Shown here one piece after another: positions 1-37,364 of a DNA stretch of 64,000 nucleotides. The translations under genes and the position numbers were made by a program. This stretch comes from Escherichia coli (GTDB taxonomy: Bacteria; Pseudomonadota; Gammaproteobacteria; Enterobacterales; Enterobacteriaceae): the NCBI RefSeq assembly GCF_050320075.1, contig NZ_CP190018.1. One strand, 5' to 3'. The notes under the pieces are model-generated. The model was not told the DNA's origin and did not search any database. It saw only the letters and a list, made by a program, of their open reading frames with translations. Position 1 is the stretch's first letter; every line of letters starts with the position of its first letter.

Positions 1-624
1 GATTTCCAGCGGGTTGTGCAACAGTTTTTCCGCCAGAGCTTTAATATCGTCAGAGAAGGTCGCGGAGAACAACAGGTTCTGGCGCTTCGCAGGTAGTTTT
101 GTTAACACGCGACGGATATCGTGGATAAAGCCCATGTCGAGCATGCGGTCAGCTTCATCGAGGACGAGGATTTCAACCTGATCCAGCTTCACCGCATTCT
201 GATGTTCCAGGTCCAGCAGACGTCCCGGCGTTGCAACCAGCACATCAACGCCGCCGCGCAACTTCATCATCTGCGGGTTAATGCTGACACCGCCAAACAC
301 CACCAGCGAACGAATGTTCAGGTATTTGCTGTAATCACGGACGTTTTCGCCAATCTGCGCCGCCAGTTCACGGGTCGGGGTAAGAATGAGCGCACGTACC
401 GGACGACGCCCTTTGGCGTGCGGCTGGCGAGTGATCAGGTGTTGCAACAGCGGCAGCGTAAAGCCCGCTGTTTTGCCGGTGCCAGTCTGGGCGCTAGCCA
501 TCAGGTCGCGGCCTTCCAGCACCGCAGGGATCGCCTGCTGCTGAATAGGGGTGGGTTCACGGTAACCCTGCTCGGCAACGGCGCGCAGGATATCAGGGCT
601 TAAACCCAAAGAATCGAAAGACAT
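1..624 (-). CDS. rhlE: ATP-dependent RNA helicase RhlE, N-terminal part (gene runs off the window start)
   Basis: Minus-strand frame starting at ATG 624-622 reads [28 protein letters not shown]... with DEAD-box helicase motifs; the listed + strand ORF 121..603 is its antisense shadow. Confidence 0.9.
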
Positions 625-852
625 AACTACTCCGAACCGCCCCGACCGTTACCGGTGTAGTTTTCAGGGAGATACTGAAAAGGAAAATGACAAAAACCAC
701 AATGTCATGAGGGAGCGGAGTGTAGCAGTTTTTGTGACGCAGCGCATAAATTATCCCTGTGACTGGCGTTGCTAAAATTCTTAGCCATACTGGACAACTC
801 CCATATGGAGTCATAATCTTAATCAATCATTTGATTAAGAATGGACTGTGCG

Positions 853-4243
<3,391 letters not shown>

Positions 4244-23790: not shown

Positions 23791-23805
23791 TTAGTATAAA
23801 AAAGC
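23791..23805. other. lambda att core (O) at the attR junction (host B' arm / core / phage P arm)
   Basis: ttagtataaaaaagc is the reverse complement of the 15-bp core GCTTTTTTATACTAA; left flank cgctcaag matches attB. Confidence 0.9.
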
Positions 23806-25934: not shown

Positions 25935-26348
25935 ATGGCTGACATTGTCACTGGTTTGACCGCACTCAAAACCGCCTTTGATTTAGCAAAAGATATAAAA
26001 AATGCCACTGGCGCATACAATGATGCAGAAATGAGGCTTAAGTTTAGTGAGCTTTATAGCGCGCTATCTGAAGCCAAAATAGAACTGGCTGATACACAGC
26101 TAGAAATGTATGAACTAAAGCTGAAGATCGAAGAGTTGCAAGCTAAGCTTGATGCATCGGACGAGCTTGAATATAGGGAAAACGTATACTGGAGGGCCTC
26201 ACCTATCAATGGCAAACCAAACGGTCCTTTTTGCCCAAGATGTTATGAAAGTTCAGAGAAGAAGCTATCTTCAATGAGTCAAGTAACGGGGCATGCAACT
26301 ATTGCTGGAAAATACAAATGTAATACTTGTAACGCCTACGTTAGATAA
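25935..26348 (+). CDS. hypothetical coiled-coil protein with C-terminal four-cysteine zinc-ribbon-like motif
   Basis: 137 aa; N-terminal heptad-rich helix (LSEAKIELADTQLEMYELKLKIEELQAKLDA), C-terminal CPRC...(23 aa)...CNTC; AT-rich; preceded by aagaggaa RBS-like sequence. Confidence 0.55.
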   Translation: MADIVTGLTALKTAFDLAKDIKNATGAYNDAEMRLKFSELYSALSEAKIELADTQLEMYELKLKIEELQAKLDASDELEYRENVYWRASPINGKPNGPFCPRCYESSEKKLSSMSQVTGHATIAGKYKCNTCNAYVR

Positions 26349-27020: not shown

Positions 27021-28061
27021 TTATTTAGACGCAAGCGCCGCATCAATTGCAGATAATCTTTGTCTTAATTCTGCGTTTTCTTCTTCCAGTGCTGTTATTC
27101 TGTCGTCTGACTCTCTGGCTACCTGAACAAGCAAGCCAGTAACACCAGAATAATCTACTGTGTAATAACGTTCACCTTCTTCACCTTCCGATCCGCTCGC
27201 ACCGTCCTGATATTTCATTACGGAACCTACAACTTCTGGGATTGCTTCCAGAGCTTCCTGTGCAATGACACCAGCATAGGGCATACCGTTTTCTTTAAGC
27301 GTGTATGTATAGCCGTTCATTTTACGGATGCGGTCGGTTGCATTATCGATCACCTGAATGTTGTCTTTCAGATCCCGGTCGGAATGCTGGTTAAATGCGG
27401 TGGCATGACATGCACCATTAACGCTTAACATATAGGTGTTATCGGTATTTTTCTGCGCATAGAACATATAAGCGCCACCATCAACACCGACTTCATAAAC
27501 AACAGGACGGCTGGAGTTGCCCCACAATTGAGCAGTAACACCAGCATAAGCGGTTCCCTGTGTGTTTAATGTCATGGTTGACCCATGATTGGCATATTTG
27601 ATCTGTAATGTGTCGGTGTAATCAAATTTAATAAGCGCGTTACTTCCACGCTTGCTGTATGACATAAGGCAGTTACCCATTTTGAGGTATCCGCTGTCAC
27701 CGGGAAAAATCATCGTACCGCCATAAAGGTTGGTAAAGTCCCAGCAAATGTTTGTCCCGTTATCGTTCAGGTTAAGGCGCGCCATTGCGTTACCTGGACT
27801 GTCTATCCATTTTTTGAGGTATAGTTCGCAATATGCATCCTCAACACCTGCCGTCCTGTGAGTTGAGCGGAGTTTTCTCCCAAATATAGCTCCGCTAGTT
27901 GGCAATACCTGCTGATACCATGAAGCAGACCAGTCACCAACGGTTTCATCTTTGCTGTCTACATATGATTTTGTTGCGTAGCTTCCTTGATCGTTTTTTA
28001 ATTTGCTAACGTCGGATTTTAGCGTTTTGATGTCATCAGGAATTACTGTCGATGTAGCCAT
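27021..28061 (-). CDS. tail fibre/spike-like protein with C-terminal intramolecular-chaperone (peptidase S74-like) domain
   Basis: 346 aa; C-terminal 120 aa (SDRDLKDNIQVID...GYTYTLKENGMPYAGVIAQEALEAIPEVVG...YYTVDYSGVTGLLVQVARE...LEEENAELRQRL) resemble the self-cleaving chaperone domain of endosialidase-type fibres. Confidence 0.6.
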   Translation of the reverse strand: MATSTVIPDDIKTLKSDVSKLKNDQGSYATKSYVDSKDETVGDWSASWYQQVLPTSGAIFGRKLRSTHRTAGVEDAYCELYLKKWIDSPGNAMARLNLNDNGTNICWDFTNLYGGTMIFPGDSGYLKMGNCLMSYSKRGSNALIKFDYTDTLQIKYANHGSTMTLNTQGTAYAGVTAQLWGNSSRPVVYEVGVDGGAYMFYAQKNTDNTYMLSVNGACHATAFNQHSDRDLKDNIQVIDNATDRIRKMNGYTYTLKENGMPYAGVIAQEALEAIPEVVGSVMKYQDGASGSEGEEGERYYTVDYSGVTGLLVQVARESDDRITALEEENAELRQRLSAIDAALASK

Positions 28062-28070
28062 TTTTCTTCC

Positions 28071-28352
28071 TCACATCCAGCCACGAAGTTGATGCTCAAC
28101 AGCAACCACGTATTCATCGAATATTGACGGTGTTTTCACATCATTAATGATGCGCACGTTTACAAAATATCCGTCTTCCTTAACACATACCGGTTCGCCA
28201 TCTTCATTCAGTTCTCCGGTTTCTTTGTACACGTTACCTATCACGTCAATAAGAATATCATCCTGCATCGACTCATCATCATAATAGCCAGTGCTATCCA
28301 TAAAGGCCGAAAAATCGGCCCTGTCGGCAAATTTAAGTGTTAAATCTTTCAT
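28071..28352 (-). CDS. hypothetical acidic protein between the two fibre genes
   Basis: 93-aa ORF, start overlaps stop of upstream fibre gene; no recognisable Tfa motif. Confidence 0.5.
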   Translation of the reverse strand: MKDLTLKFADRADFSAFMDSTGYYDDESMQDDILIDVIGNVYKETGELNEDGEPVCVKEDGYFVNVRIINDVKTPSIFDEYVVAVEHQLRGWM

Positions 28353-30754
28353 TTAATACTCTCCCCCATTTGCGCATCAGTTAATTCTTTATGCCAGAGA
28401 CGAAGATTTCTCAAATGGCCGAATAGATGACGTGTCCCTGATGTGGCTTGACCTCCTATTCTAATAAAGGTCCGCGTTTTTACGCCCGTCCATTCCGTTT
28501 CAATGGTTTTAGTAGCCTCACCGTTAGAAACTACTCGTTTAGTACCGTCAGAATAAATATTAAAACCACCAATGAATTTTCGAACATCCGTTCGACCAGT
28601 AAACAAACTAGAAACGTAACTACTTGTCGACGCTTTATAAGTTTGCATATAAAGCTGACCGTAATATCTCTCGGTTGTGTTAAAAGCGTATGTGATTGAC
28701 TCAATAGGCGGCACACCAGAAAAATCAAAAATACGCGGTGCTACATTAGGGGGAATATCGCCCCAATTCCTGTTAACCTCGACCAAACAAGTAAGCGGTC
28801 TGTTATAAATGTTGTTTTCGGTCGGGATCGTAACCATATCACTCGCACGAGTCGCCGCCGTCGCTCCTGATATAATAAAAGATGATACACAAGGCCCATC
28901 TTCTACTTGTGGGGTGGCCAGATAAATATAGTCACCAGATACGGTTGCCCCGCTCTGCTTAGGAGAATACTGTATCTGAGAGCCTATTTTTAACTCCCCA
29001 TCAATTGCCTGAATTGTTGCCTCTGCAAAAATCCATCCGGTAGCTTCGTCCTTTCTGACTCTCGCTGTAATCCTTGAGGCAGCACCGCCTGTCATATTAA
29101 TTTCAAGCGTTTGTGTATCAATATACGCATCACCAAGAAAAGTTGTTGCGCTACCGTCATATTTATCAAACCGGATACGCAACCTTACCTGCAGTTCTGT
29201 TTTAAAACGACATGAGGTTGTCACGTATTTATTATCGCCTGAGACATCAACTGACTTTGTTGCAGCAATTGATGCCATATTAATGGCTGAGGTTTGCCCA
29301 ATCAGAGAATCGTTACAGACAAACTTTCCATAGGTAAAACCAAAACTATCCGTCCCGGTTTCGGGAACATCCATATTTGACGATCGCCCCCAACTGGCAG
29401 GGCTTTCCGAATTGAGCATGTAGTTCGCTCTTTGCCCCTCAATAAGCAGGCCATCACGTTCAAATCGTGGCTCGTCAATGGCAGCCTCTGTCAGCACACC
29501 AGATTTATTAATATAGGTTGCTTTCGATGCGCGTTTAAACTTTACAACCTTATCGCCAGGCATCGTTATTTCATCATCACCAATAACAATCTTTTTATAT
29601 GACGGCGAAAACCCCGTAATCATATCCAGTGAATCGTTAAACGGTATCCACACATCAGGCAACGGCTGCAAAACTTGTTTATACGGCTCCGCTGCCTGGC
29701 TTGCATACTCTCTGGCTGCGTCTTCACTTGCTTTAGCTGCTGTCTGGCTTGCTGCCGATGCTTGCGCCGAGTTCGCCGCTGTAGTCTCGCTCGCCTTTGC
29801 GTTGTCTTCACTGGTTTTTGCAGCTCTTTGACTGTTGGCTGATGCCGTGGCAGAAGCAGCCGCCGCGCTTGCAGAACCAGCTGCGGCACTCTCGCTTTGG
29901 GCCGCTGCATCCTGACTGTTTTTCGCCGCAGTTTCGCTGGCTTTGGCATTCGTTTCGCTGGTCTTCGCTGCAGTCTCGCTTGTCTTTGCGTTGGTTTCAC
30001 TGGTTTTTGCAGCTCTTTGACTGTTGGCTGATGCCGTGGCAGAAGTAGCCGCCGCACTTGCAGAACTGGCTGCCGCTCTCTCGCTTTGGGCTGCTGCATC
30101 CTGACTGTTTTTTGCTGCGGTAGCGGAGTTTGCTGCGGCACTCTGACTCGATTCTGCAGCCACCTCGCTATTTTTCGCATTAGTTTCGCTGGTCTTTGAA
30201 GCTGTCTCACTCGCTTTTGAGTTGTTTTCTGATTTTTTGGCTGCAGTCGCGGAGTTTGCCGATGCAGTCTGTGAGGCCGCTGCCGCCTGTGCGCTGTTAG
30301 CTGCATTCGTTTCTGAGGTTTTCGCCGCGTTCTTCGATGATGCCGCTGCAGTTTCGGATGTCTTTGCCGCCGCTGCGCTCTGAGAGGCGGCTTCAGCGTT
30401 GCGTGCCGCTTCTTCCACCATTTCCTGAAAACGGCGCAATGCCTCCGGCATGACATCATCTTCCGTCATGGCACCGAGAAAATCATTCAGCGTCCCCGGA
30501 CTGGAACCTTCATAGACGGTAATGGTCCCGGCATGTGAAGGCGGAAAACCTTCAACCAGCAGGATGACGCTGTACTGGCCATACTCAACGTCCATACTGT
30601 AACGCCCGGCTTCATCAGGATTTTCAGAGGCCACCGTGTTCACCAGTACCGTGGTGCTGTTACGCTTTGCCTTCAGTTGAATAGTGCAGTTCTGTATTGG
30701 TTTTCCCGCACCATCTTTCAGCACACCTGAGATTTTTACTGCTGCCATATCCAC
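28349..30754 (-). CDS. stf: side tail fibre protein (Stf-like): lambda-type N-terminus, Ala/Ser/Thr-rich repeat shaft, divergent C-terminal domain
   Basis: 801 aa; N-terminus MAAVKISGVLKDGAGKPIQNCTIQLKAKRNSTTVLVNTV...GRYSMDVEYGQYSVIL matches lambda Stf; central AAKTSETNAK/AAAQSE repeats; C-terminal 450 aa unlike lambda. Confidence 0.85.
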   Translation of the reverse strand: MDMAAVKISGVLKDGAGKPIQNCTIQLKAKRNSTTVLVNTVASENPDEAGRYSMDVEYGQYSVILLVEGFPPSHAGTITVYEGSSPGTLNDFLGAMTEDDVMPEALRRFQEMVEEAARNAEAASQSAAAAKTSETAAASSKNAAKTSETNAANSAQAAAASQTASANSATAAKKSENNSKASETASKTSETNAKNSEVAAESSQSAAANSATAAKNSQDAAAQSERAAASSASAAATSATASANSQRAAKTSETNAKTSETAAKTSETNAKASETAAKNSQDAAAQSESAAAGSASAAAASATASANSQRAAKTSEDNAKASETTAANSAQASAASQTAAKASEDAAREYASQAAEPYKQVLQPLPDVWIPFNDSLDMITGFSPSYKKIVIGDDEITMPGDKVVKFKRASKATYINKSGVLTEAAIDEPRFERDGLLIEGQRANYMLNSESPASWGRSSNMDVPETGTDSFGFTYGKFVCNDSLIGQTSAINMASIAATKSVDVSGDNKYVTTSCRFKTELQVRLRIRFDKYDGSATTFLGDAYIDTQTLEINMTGGAASRITARVRKDEATGWIFAEATIQAIDGELKIGSQIQYSPKQSGATVSGDYIYLATPQVEDGPCVSSFIISGATAATRASDMVTIPTENNIYNRPLTCLVEVNRNWGDIPPNVAPRIFDFSGVPPIESITYAFNTTERYYGQLYMQTYKASTSSYVSSLFTGRTDVRKFIGGFNIYSDGTKRVVSNGEATKTIETEWTGVKTRTFIRIGGQATSGTRHLFGHLRNLRLWHKELTDAQMGESIK
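29770..30140. repeat. tandem direct repeat of 189 bp (about 90% identical copies) inside stf
   Basis: tcactggtttttgcagctctttgactgttggctgatgccgtggcagaag at 29808 recurs at 29997; flanking sequence also repeats. Confidence 0.85.
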
Positions 30755-30812: not shown

Positions 30813-31412
30813 TCAGAATTTATAACCGACACCCACGATGAAACCGTCAGTGTGCCAGTCACCACTGCCGGAGCCTTCATAAGCAAGGTCAATGGCCACG
30901 GATTCGGTCGGGTTAAACTGCACGCCAGCCCCCCACGCCAGAGACGTGTCGCTGTGGCGACCGTCATCACTTCCGTTCAGCACATCGTACGTTTTCCCCT
31001 TATTGTCAGTTACGCGGAGATAATCCCCGGAGAAGGTCGACACACGGCTGTAAGCCACGCCCGCCATCGCATACGCGCTGAACCATTCATTCACGCGTAC
31101 AGACGGCCCCGCCATCATGCTGAACCAGCGGTTACGCACTGAATCTTCATGCCAGCGGGTATCGCTGTAACGGGTAATCTGGCGATTCTTGTCTCCTGCA
31201 TAACTGAATGACGTCACCAGCCCCAGCGTGTCCGTAAATTCATAACGGTATTTCACGTTAATGCCCTTCAGGTCATCACTGCCTGGCATATCAGTATGGG
31301 CCTGAAGATACCCGGCGCTTAGTGTGGACTGATGCTCTGCTGCGCTCGCTGGCGTACCAACGGCAACCAGCCAGACTACTGCGGACAGAATAACAGCACA
31401 TAATTTACGCAT
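30813..31412 (-). CDS. lom: outer-membrane protein Lom (Ail/PagC/OmpX family)
   Basis: 199 aa with signal peptide and C-terminal ...[11 protein letters not shown] identical to the lambda Lom terminus; directly downstream of J. Confidence 0.9.
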
Positions 31413-31479: not shown

Positions 31480-34400
31480 TCAGCTGATACTGATGCCTGC
31501 GGTGGCTTTCTTCATCACCACAACCAGCAAATCGCTGATACTTGCTGTGGGATACCAGTCATTTACCAGCCATGCTGACACCGAAAACTCCAGCGTCATG
31601 TGACCGTGACCGGCAGGCATATCAACAACGCCACTGTAAATCAGCGTATTATCCAGCGCGGTACGGTTATAAATTTCAGCACCGTTTTTCCGCACTATCA
31701 GACGGCATGAGGAGTAAATATCAGTATGCTCTCTCTCATGTTTAGCGCCGCTGAATGCCACCGCCGGAATAACAATCTGCCGGTCAAACGGCTGATCGTC
31801 ATAAACCCTGACGGTAATGGTCCCTGATGGCCACCGTTCCGGTGCACGGGAGTCACGGGGGAAAGCTTTGCCCACTGTTTTAACGAGATCGCCTTCAATC
31901 TGGTTCGCGGACAGTTTTCCCAGAACCCGGCAATTCTCGTTAATCGTGACGTTGTTGAGCGTCCCGGAGTTCGCATTCACGTTACCGCTGATATCGGCAT
32001 TTTTTGCCGTCAGCCGCCCGTCCGGTGTCAGGGAAAATGCCGGAGGATTACCGCCGCTGGTAATGGTGGGAGCCGTCAGATATTTCAGGAACACTTCATT
32101 CATAAATATCTGATCGCCCTGACCAACAAACATCGGCTTTGTGTTGCCATTCGCAGGATTAATCATCGCAATCCTGTCTGCCGCCAGCAGCACCTGACTC
32201 TGCATGCCGTCAGGGGTGTTTTCAATACCGGCACCAATACCCGCGATATAAAGGCGTCCGTCCTGCATCTGCTGCAGCTTCACAGCCCACATGCTGCTCA
32301 GGTTATTATTTGTATCAACCTGAACCTTCTGTATCTGCTGGATCGCTGCACTCTGGTCTTCCAGTTTCTTATTGACGGTCTGCGTGATTTCATTGCTGAC
32401 ATCCGTAATGGACGTCCTGATTTCAGCCAGGTCAGGCGCAAGCTGACCGTTATCAATCTGCGTCCACAGCTCCTGAGCCAGATGGGTTTTCCCTATCTCT
32501 CCTTTGAAAAAATCCAGATAGCCGGATGCATCATCACTCGGCTGGCCAACAGCCTCCACAAATGCCGATTTGCCAACGGTGTTCACACTGCGGATGTAAA
32601 AATAATAATCACGGCCCGGTTTGATATTGATACTGGCGGCTATCCAGTACAGCGCCGTGCCAAGATAGCGGGCTGTGGTTTCAACCTGCCTGATATCGGT
32701 AATCCGCGTTTCCGAGAACCAGAACTCAAACTGTACCGTCGGATCATAAACCGCAAGATGCGGCGTGGCAGTTATCTGAAAATAGCCCGGCGTCAGCTCA
32801 ATCCGCGACGGCGCTGCCGGTGCGGCAATCCGGAACGATACCGACGCCGGATCGCCCTGCTGCCCCCAGGCATTTGCCGCCCGGACTGTCAGCCTGTAGT
32901 TTCCCAACGCCAGTTGCGTGAAGCGGTATGTGGTTTCCGTCGTCCGGGCCGTGCTGACCAGCCGCTCACTGCCGTCATCCGCTGCCACGGTCAGGCGAAG
33001 CATAAAGCTCACGCCCTTCACCACCTTCGGCGTGTCCCAGCGCGCCAGTACCTGATATTCCCCGCTGTCTGCGGTGACTTCGGCAGTCAGGTGCTGCACC
33101 GCTGGCGGCGTGACACCATTCACCGTGCCACTCTGGTCGCCGTCAAAGTGCGCCCCGTTATCCACGATGGCCTCTTTTTCCGGCACATGCTGCACAGCGG
33201 TGATGGCATACGTGCCGTCGTCGTTCTCACGGATACTCACACAGCGGAACAGGCGCTGACGCAGCATCGGCAGCTTCAGCCCCCACACGCTGTATTCGGC
33301 AACGCCGTCAGGAACACGGCTCACTTTTACCTTCACGCCGTCGGTGACGGACTGGACCTCCACGCTCACCGGATTACCCTGCCCGTCAACCAGGCTTATC
33401 AGCGTGGTACCGGAGGATGGCAGCGTGATTTCACGGTCGAGCGTCAGCGTCCGGGTCTGGCTGTTCACCGCCAGCACGCGACCACCGATGCTGATACCGG
33501 CATAGTCATCATCACAGATTTCAATGACATCGCCCGGTACATGGCGAAGCCCTTCGGCACCCACGCTGAAGTCCACGGTCTGCGTTTCCAGCAGTTCCGT
33601 TTTAATCAGCCACAGCCCGGCGCGGTGCGCCTGCCCCCGGCTGGTACAGCCAAAGGCATCCATCTTCGTGACGTTACGACCGTAACGGAGAATGGCCTGC
33701 GTATCTTCAACAAGCTCTGTCGCCGTCTCCCAGCCGTTATTCGGGTCAATCCAGTTCACCTCAACGGCATTATGGCGGTCCTTCAGGGCGCTGAAGCTGT
33801 AGCGGAACGGCGCGCCATCATCCGGCATCACCACATTACTGTGGTTATAGGTCCACACCTTATCCGACGGTCGGTCCTGCACGAACGTCAGCGTCTGCCC
33901 GTTCCATACCGGCATACAGCGCATCGCCGAACAGAAATCACTGAGCACATCCCACGCCTTACGCTGTGTGGTCAGCCAGGCATTACAGGTGATGCGCGGC
34001 TCCGTACCACCAAAGCCATCCGGCACTGACTGATCGCAATACTGGCCGATGACATACAGCGCCCATTTGTCCACATCCGCCGCACCAAGACGTTTCCCCA
34101 TGCCGTAGCGCGGGTGGGTCAGCATATCCCACAGACACCAGGCCATGTTGTTGCTGTATGCCGGTTTAAACGTCCCGTCCCAGATACCGCTGTATTGCCG
34201 CGTCTGCGGGTTATAGTTCGATGGCACCTGCAGAATGCGCCCGCGAAGATGATAATTACGGCTCACCTGCTGGCTGCCGAACTGTTCCGAGTCCACCTGC
34301 ACGCCGACCAGTGCCGTGTTCGGGTAGCACTGTTTCACATCGATGATTTCAGTGTATGACGACCAGAGCGTTTTGTTCTGCAGCTGGTCTGTGGTGCTGT

Positions 34401-34959
34401 CCGGCGTCATCCTGCGCATCCGGATATTAAACGGGCGCGGCGGCAGGTTACCCACCACCACCGATGCCAGATACTGTGAGGTGGTTTTGCCTTTAATGGT
34501 GATGTCTTTTTCCGTCACCCAGCCACCGTTACGCTGTATCTGAACCAGCAGGCGGACTTCCGACGGATTCCGGTCCCCCTTTGAGGTGGTTTCCACCAGT
34601 GCCTGCACACCGAAGGTAAAGCGCAGACGGTCGATGTTTGCAGACGTGATGGTCCGGGTAATCGGCGTGTCGTACTTCACTTCCGTACCCAGCACCGTCT
34701 CGGAGCCGGAGGATTCAAATCCCTCCGGCGGTGTCTGCTCCTGCTCACCTGCCCGGAAAACCACCGTGACACCGGAGATATTGGTATTCCCCTCACTGTC
34801 CAGCACTGGCGTACTGTTCAGCAGCACACTTTTTAATCCGTCCACCGGACCTTCAATCGGCCCTTCACTGATGGCGTCTATCACGCTCAGCATCTGCGTG
34901 GACTTCAGGTTGTCCTTCGCTTCGCGCGGGGTATGCCCCTTACTGCTGCCTTTACCCAT
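31480..34959 (-). CDS. J: tail tip host-specificity protein J with divergent C-terminal receptor-binding region
   Basis: 1159 aa; [22 protein letters not shown]... near-identical to lambda gpJ for about the first 800 residues; last 330 residues diverge. Confidence 0.93.
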
Positions 34960-37035: not shown

Positions 37036-37364
37036 CAGTTCACCACCTGTTCAAACTCTGCGCTGAACTCAACACGCAGCATACTGACCCGCGACGACCA
37101 TTTTGCGCAGGTCACCTTTATCTGCCGCCACTCATAAGGCGGCGTCCACAGAAAGGATTTCCAGCCCCCGTGCTCTTCCAGAAACGACTCCAGTACCATG
37201 GCCTCCTCACGGGGGACAGAAAGCGTCACGCTGTACGTTTTCAGGTTGGCATTCAGCCCGGCAGGCGCTCGCTGGGAATAGCCATCACCAAAGCGCACCT
37301 TTCTTACAGAAGGGGCCGAAGCCACATCCATACCGGGTTTCACTTTCCAGCGGAAGGTTTTCAT
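37035..37364 (-). CDS. M: minor tail protein M
   Basis: 109 aa, lambda gpM-like. Confidence 0.92.
   Translation of the reverse strand: MKTFRWKVKPGMDVASAPSVRKVRFGDGYSQRAPAGLNANLKTYSVTLSVPREEAMVLESFLEEHGGWKSFLWTPPYEWRQIKVTCAKWSSRVSMLRVEFSAEFEQVVN

Follow-up and report, generated by a model that had tools for sequence, protein, structure and literature searches.

The prophage locus and its J gene

The J protein of phage lambda recognizes the outer-membrane protein LamB, and a prophage J protein whose distal part departs from that of lambda raises the question of which host receptor it recognizes instead. Such a gene was found in a 64,000-nt stretch of Escherichia coli DNA, referred to below as the window. 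The prophage occupies the classical attB-lambda site in lambda's orientation, as the 15-bp lambda att core is present beside ybhB-bioA without a mismatch; shuffled sequence gives 0 copies. The J gene is an unbroken reading frame according to both the ORF list and the translation (Table 1).

The J product matches the NCBIfam family lambda_TipJ (NF049904) with 2384.5 bits (cut-off 1950), residues 1–1159 being aligned to profile positions 1–1163. The Pfam domains FNIII-A_GpJ, Phage-tail_3, Ig_J, Ig_J_second, Phage_Tail_Tip and Ig_GpJ_C follow each other in this order, all above their cut-offs, and outline the lambda-type arrangement of a hub, two FNIII/Ig domains, a shaft, a beta-prism and a C-terminal Ig-like receptor-binding domain (RBD). 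The late operon, as seen in the window ORFs and in an identical RefSeq locus, has the order tape measure, M, L, K, I, J, lom, stf. The J gene thus lies between gene I and lom/stf, its position in lambda-type tail operons, with lom directly downstream as in lambda. RefSeq genomes with an identical locus label the gene gpJ. The window J is the tail-tip and central-fibre protein of a lambda-like prophage at the lambda att site.

Table 1. Features of the J gene and of the surrounding prophage region. Coordinates are those of the window.
Feature	Coordinates	Strand	Evidence or remark
gpJ gene (tail tip attachment / central tail fibre)	31480..34959	-	ORF list and translation; 1159 codons + stop
Lambda-type N-terminal module (aa 1–805): hub domains, two FNIII/Ig, docks into tail tip	32545..34959	-	aa/nt identity, Pfam
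Divergent alpha-helical shaft (aa 806–871)	32347..32544	-	alignment; 20–57% identity to lambda
~27-aa shaft insertion relative to lambda (about aa 836–862)	~32374-32454	-	alignment gap
Beta-prism central straight fibre (aa 872–1000), Phage_Tail_Tip	31960..32346	-	PF09327, 110.7 bits
Conserved joint (aa 961–1012)	31924..32079	-	87% nt identity to lambda, with a divergent block on either side
Receptor-binding segment (aa 993–1159), 1A2/VT1-Sakai/PhiR55_1 type	31483..31983	-	identity, PF12421
Ig-like domain PF12421 / Ig_GpJ_C (aa 1029–1159)	31483-31875	-	Pfam, 128.6 bits
lom (Ail/Lom outer-membrane protein)	30813..31412	-	Pfam Ail_Lom, E = 1.8e-119; RefSeq annotation
stf-like side tail fibre gene, ~800 aa	28349..30754	-	Pfam phage_tail_N, 218.8 bits
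Tape measure protein	37361-39940		859 aa
DUF2971 protein, 292 aa	24511-25389	+	cargo ORF
137-aa ORF, weak zinc-ribbon match	25935-26348	+	cargo ORF
15-bp lambda att core GCTTTTTTATACTAA, exact copy	23791-23805	-	adjoins ybhB-bioA

Divergence from lambda J

Compared by BLASTP with lambda J (J02459), the window J is 83% identical overall. Identity amounts to 98.5% in residues 1–400 and 96.0% in residues 401–805 (~97% over residues 1–805). It falls to 56.7% in residues 806–835 and to 20% in residues 836–900, a value that includes the insertion of ~27 aa, rises to 75% in residues 901–992 and is 47% in the RBD (residues 993–1159), where there is a 1-residue indel. On the nucleotide level, identity is 90–98% up to gene nt 2400, 41–65% across nt 2401–2850, 87% at nt 2851–3000, and ~55% thence to the stop codon. 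The GC content along the gene drops from ~0.58–0.64 to ~0.47–0.53 in the distal part. The RBD DNA retains only ~55% identity to lambda next to 90–98% upstream, which points to an exchanged module and not to drift.

The original prediction described the first 800 residues or so as almost identical to lambda gpJ and the last 330, encoded at 31480–32470, as strongly diverged. The former statement agrees with the values for residues 1–805. The divergence in the latter is real, but it starts at residue ~806 (window position ~32544), the beginning of the shaft, and not at 32470 (residue ~830). The break therefore lies ~75 nt further upstream, and ~354 rather than 330 residues differ. Over the whole region the divergence is uneven and stepwise, and the sequence is still homologous, with Phage_Tail_Tip and Ig_GpJ_C scoring well above their cut-offs. 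Likewise, the C-terminus that was called non-lambda is a distinct RBD allele but not a foreign or unrelated sequence: it is an allelic variant with the same Ig-like RBD fold as in lambda. All four hypervariable stretches of the RBD differ from those of lambda, so that neither the RBD sequence nor the four distal loops of the LamB-binding class are conserved.

Modular structure of the J protein

In lambda gpJ, the hub is followed by two FNIII domains, an alpha-helical shaft (residues ~809–861), a beta-prism fibre, and an Ig-like RBD that bears four loops at its distal end (PMC11101478). A segment-by-segment comparison with eight other J proteins demonstrated that the window J is a mosaic of three modules: a lambda-type N-terminal part, a "long" shaft with the prism, and an RBD of the 1A2 class. 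The N-terminal part (residues 1–805) is 91–99% identical to phage 434, PhiR55_1, ev203 and PhiR40_1. The shaft (residues 806–871) is 97–100% identical to WGPS6, Lambda_ev203 and PhiR55_1. For WGPS6, an Stx2a phage, and Lambda_ev203, a gut phage, the same level is maintained over residues 806–992, and residues 901–992 are 100% identical to WGPS6. This type of shaft and prism recurs in many lambdoid phages, both Stx phages and phages of the gut. The RBD (residues 993–1159) has its closest relatives in PhiR55_1 (98.8%), VT1-Sakai (97.6%) and PhiR40_1 (87%), followed by ev203 (66%), YYZ-2008/A8 (62%), lambda (47%), and 434 and WGPS6 (43–45%).

The second and third modules meet in a conserved joint at residues 961–1012. 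Across it, the identity of WGPS6 and ev203 to the window J falls from 97–100% to 43–66%, and this abrupt switch marks the joint as a natural recombination point for RBD exchange. The point at which lambda J has been fused to other C-termini in engineered phages, residue 964 of lambda, falls within the joint.

Lambdoid phages differ in how long the J shaft is. Lambda and 434 have a short one (J proteins of 1132 and 1137 aa); in the window J and in those of WGPS6, ev203 and Sakai (1159–1164 aa) it exceeds this length by 27 aa, and in PhiR40_1 (J at 124-3822; 1232 aa) by ~100 aa.

A sequence search of the PDB with the last 330 residues retrieved gpJ713 of A8 (E = 1.6e-117) and lambda gpJ (E ~1e-97). 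In an AlphaFold2 model of residues 959–1159, pLDDT is 78–95 over the Ig-like domain. The best four structural matches to the RBD model are lambda gpJ713 with LamB in the open state (8xcj) and alone in the closed state (8xck), and A8 gpJ713 in the closed state (9wca) and with OmpC G17 of EDL933 in the open state (9wcb). In the alignment, four stretches of the RBD hold nearly all substitutions and indels that distinguish the RBD classes, and they probably correspond to loops L1–L4. The classical host-range positions of lambda J (S1012, T1040, V1077, D1107) presumably lie within or beside these stretches.

Prediction of the receptor

In the work of Brodel et al. (Nature 2024, PMC11338833), C-termini of natural prophage gpJ variants were joined to lambda J with residue 964 as the fusion point, which yielded two chimeras, A8 and 1A2, with OmpC in place of LamB as their receptor. 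The 1A2 chimera delivers DNA into ΔlamB ΔompC K-12 (MG1655) only if ompC is supplied, while wild-type lambda particles have no success in this background. When 23 plasmid-borne ompC alleles were compared in MG1655 ΔlamB ΔompC, delivery by 1A2 was 76–99% with 20 of them, including G17 (EDL933 OmpC according to the PDB title), and ~1–2% with alleles G1, G2 and G40. The G1 values equal those of the panel "OmpC-MG1655", which places K-12 OmpC at ~2% delivery by 1A2 (PMC11338833).

The DNA sequence of 1A2 was taken from a supplementary PDF, where it is recoded and damaged by OCR: 161 of the 167 RBD codons are readable, six are unreadable, and three are doubtful. It was read by a custom frameshift-tolerant protein-to-DNA alignment, because plain tblastn broke the DNA into frames. 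Of the readable codons, 158 of 161 match the RBD of VT1-Sakai, and the three mismatches lie beside OCR indels. The window RBD is identical to that of 1A2, read in this way, at 163 of 167 positions, the differences being R1076K, V1112I, D1134N and S1157T. The same four distinguish it from VT1-Sakai (163/167, 97.6%; equal length, no indels). The near-identity covers the entire transplanted segment, from lambda residue 965 to the end.

As the RBD is nearly identical to that of the experimentally OmpC-dependent 1A2, sequence similarity makes OmpC very probably the receptor of the window J, whose use of it would be allele-specific and independent of LamB. The proposal that the receptor specificity had been swapped for something other than LamB is thereby supported: 53% of the RBD differs from lambda, and the alignment with lambda J and with J proteins of known receptor, which the same prediction had named as its check, places the RBD outside the LamB type and closest to the OmpC-using 1A2. 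By analogy with 1A2, many of the OmpC alleles found in nature are probably accepted by the window RBD, the K-12 allele being an exception.

Two further OmpC users are the J proteins of phages 434 and phi330 (PMC12502783). They share the fold with the window J, as does the WGPS6 protein of the same OmpC-using group, whose shaft and prism (residues 806–992) are those of the window. The A8 type (YYZ-2008) likewise combines the same fold with OmpC, its J being deposited in complex with the EDL933 protein (9wcb), and it differs from the window RBD by indels in the loops. In contrast to 1A2, A8 accepts K-12 OmpC. Lambda gpJ itself (LamB; PDB 8xcj, 8xck, 8iyk) agrees with the window J in domain order, RBD fold and operon position, and differs by its shorter and dissimilar shaft and by all variable loops of the RBD. 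Lambda-type RBDs lie outside the coverage of a large receptor-prediction study (preprint 10.64898/2026.04.02.716166).

Several other class assignments of the window RBD were considered and rejected: the 434 type (43–45% identity and multi-residue indels in two loops), the A8 type (62%), the LamB type (47%), and the FhuA type represented by HK022. Phage HK022 uses FhuA. The BLASTP alignment of its J protein with the window J stops at residue ~959, and no significant BLASTP alignment was found between HK022 J and residues 993–1159.

The four substitutions that separate the window RBD from 1A2 are conservative (R/K, V/I, D/N, S/T), and we infer that they leave the receptor unchanged. However, R1076K and D1134N fall in hypervariable stretches, which the alignment and the secondary structure of the model suggest to be loops. 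If these loops contact the porin, the range of accepted OmpC alleles could differ. In addition, 1A2 was tested on the lambda shaft and prism, whereas the shaft of the window J is 27 aa longer. There is a small chance that D1134N, which changes a charge, together with R1076K and the longer shaft gives the window J a second receptor or a range of OmpC alleles unlike that of 1A2. In that case the window-type RBD, which is very abundant, would represent a separate host-range variant and not a synonym of 1A2.

The four substitutions, or else the greater length of the shaft, might direct the protein to another outer-membrane protein (OmpF, FhuA, BtuB, LptD) or to a second receptor. Apart from the location of two of the four substitutions, this reading draws on the observation that one or a few substitutions in lambda J can add the use of OmpF (cited in PMC11101478), and on a report that J of Gifsy-1 binds OmpC, OmpX and BtuB (PMC12312913). 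We consider it unlikely, given the conservative nature of the substitutions, the absence of homology to the FhuA-type J of HK022 past residue ~959, and the fact that RBD classes with 43–62% identity to the window (434, A8) are still OmpC users.

Closest natural relatives

The RBD of VT1-Sakai (Sp15), which corresponds to that of 1A2, matches the window RBD in length after the ADISG joint. In this Stx1 prophage, the J gene (519-3991) is represented by two overlapping truncated CDSs annotated as "truncated protein by a mutation". The VT1-Sakai copy, although of the donor type for 1A2, is thus probably non-functional; the window J, in contrast, is intact.

A closer relative of the complete protein is J of PhiR55_1 (PV340571), a member of the ECOR temperate phage panel. 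It has 1159 aa and the same three modules, the segments being 98–100% identical, and its gene is surrounded by the same neighbours I, J, lom and stf. Within the RBD, V1050I and V1112I are its only differences from the window, and neither falls in a hypervariable stretch. The deposited record of PhiR55_1 is a complete phage genome and gives E. coli C as the host; the source paper is that of Brenes and Laub (2025). Propagation on a non-K-12 host would fit a restriction by K-12 OmpC. The phage has been plated in efficiency-of-plaquing (EOP) assays (PMC13190303). The receptor of PhiR55_1 is not stated in that paper, which deals with SNIPE and gives the ManYZ dependence only: PhiR55.1 is among the temperate phages that are still modestly inhibited by SNIPE without ManYZ, and the use of ManYZ is tied to the tape measure protein (PMC13190303).

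These relatives also bear on the possibility that the window J is a relic of a defective prophage, its receptor specificity having no present function. Lambdoid prophages of E. coli are often defective, and the frameshift in VT1-Sakai is an example within the same RBD class. Nevertheless, such a state is very improbable for the window: the 1159-aa reading frame is intact and lies in a late operon that appears complete from the terminase to the tail fibre (window ORFs and RefSeq annotation), many unrelated isolates carry the 4.4-kb J-lom region with 100% identity, and the plaque-forming PhiR55_1 carries a near-identical J. Finally, that the RBD stays within the functional variation of lambda and still binds LamB is barely conceivable, despite the common fold and Pfam family and a prism that is 75% identical to lambda just above the RBD, as the RBD itself is only 47% identical with all hypervariable stretches changed, its DNA indicates a module exchange, and the near-identical RBD of 1A2 works without lamB and requires ompC.

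Proposed trigger

With OmpC as the likely receptor, the fold shared with gpJ713 of lambda and A8 suggests that the trigger would be the same as described for lambda (PMC11101478), by analogy with the complexes of lambda J with LamB and of A8 J with OmpC. The four distal loops of the trimeric RBD would enter the OmpC trimer at its extracellular face. Binding of the porin could then spread the base of the RBD, after which the prism would twist. Subsequently, the helical shaft would flip and the tip of the tail would open, so that the DNA can be ejected.

Prevalence of the RBD class

In complete E. coli genomes, the 504 nt encoding the window RBD have matches with at least 95% nucleotide identity in 2,315 replicon records, and with at least 99% identity in 407. 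The lambda RBD DNA was found in only 98 of 5,426 E. coli genomes, the matches listed being laboratory and DE3 strains. In a phage collection, 52 records, many of them Stx phages, contain the window RBD class at 95% amino acid identity or more. Hence the class to which the window RBD belongs is the one commonly found in natural prophages of E. coli, and lambda is the atypical member; the LamB specificity of lambda would be an exception among the natural lambdoid prophages of this species. If the class targets OmpC, its host range should be predictable from ompC alleles, and K-12 is predicted to be non-permissive, which may be of use for annotation and for the design of phage vectors. The allele and its receptor have been documented already, as has the exchange of modules at the ADISG joint, and they represent no new biology.

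Neighbouring tail-fibre and cargo genes

The stf-like gene downstream of lom is labelled "prophage tail fiber N-terminal domain-containing protein" in RefSeq, and its product is likely an accessory adsorption device alongside J. The side-tail-fibre region (27021-30754, minus strand) comprises this gene of ~800 codons, a 93-aa ORF, and a 346-aa Peptidase_S74 (endosialidase chaperone) protein. The GC content is 0.41–0.45 over ~27.8–29.4 kb, compared to 0.55–0.64 in J. The low GC content suggests that the distal fibre module was acquired separately, possibly with a glycan as its target. The stretch from the tail-fibre genes to the att core contains two cargo ORFs on the plus strand (Table 1), which may be morons.
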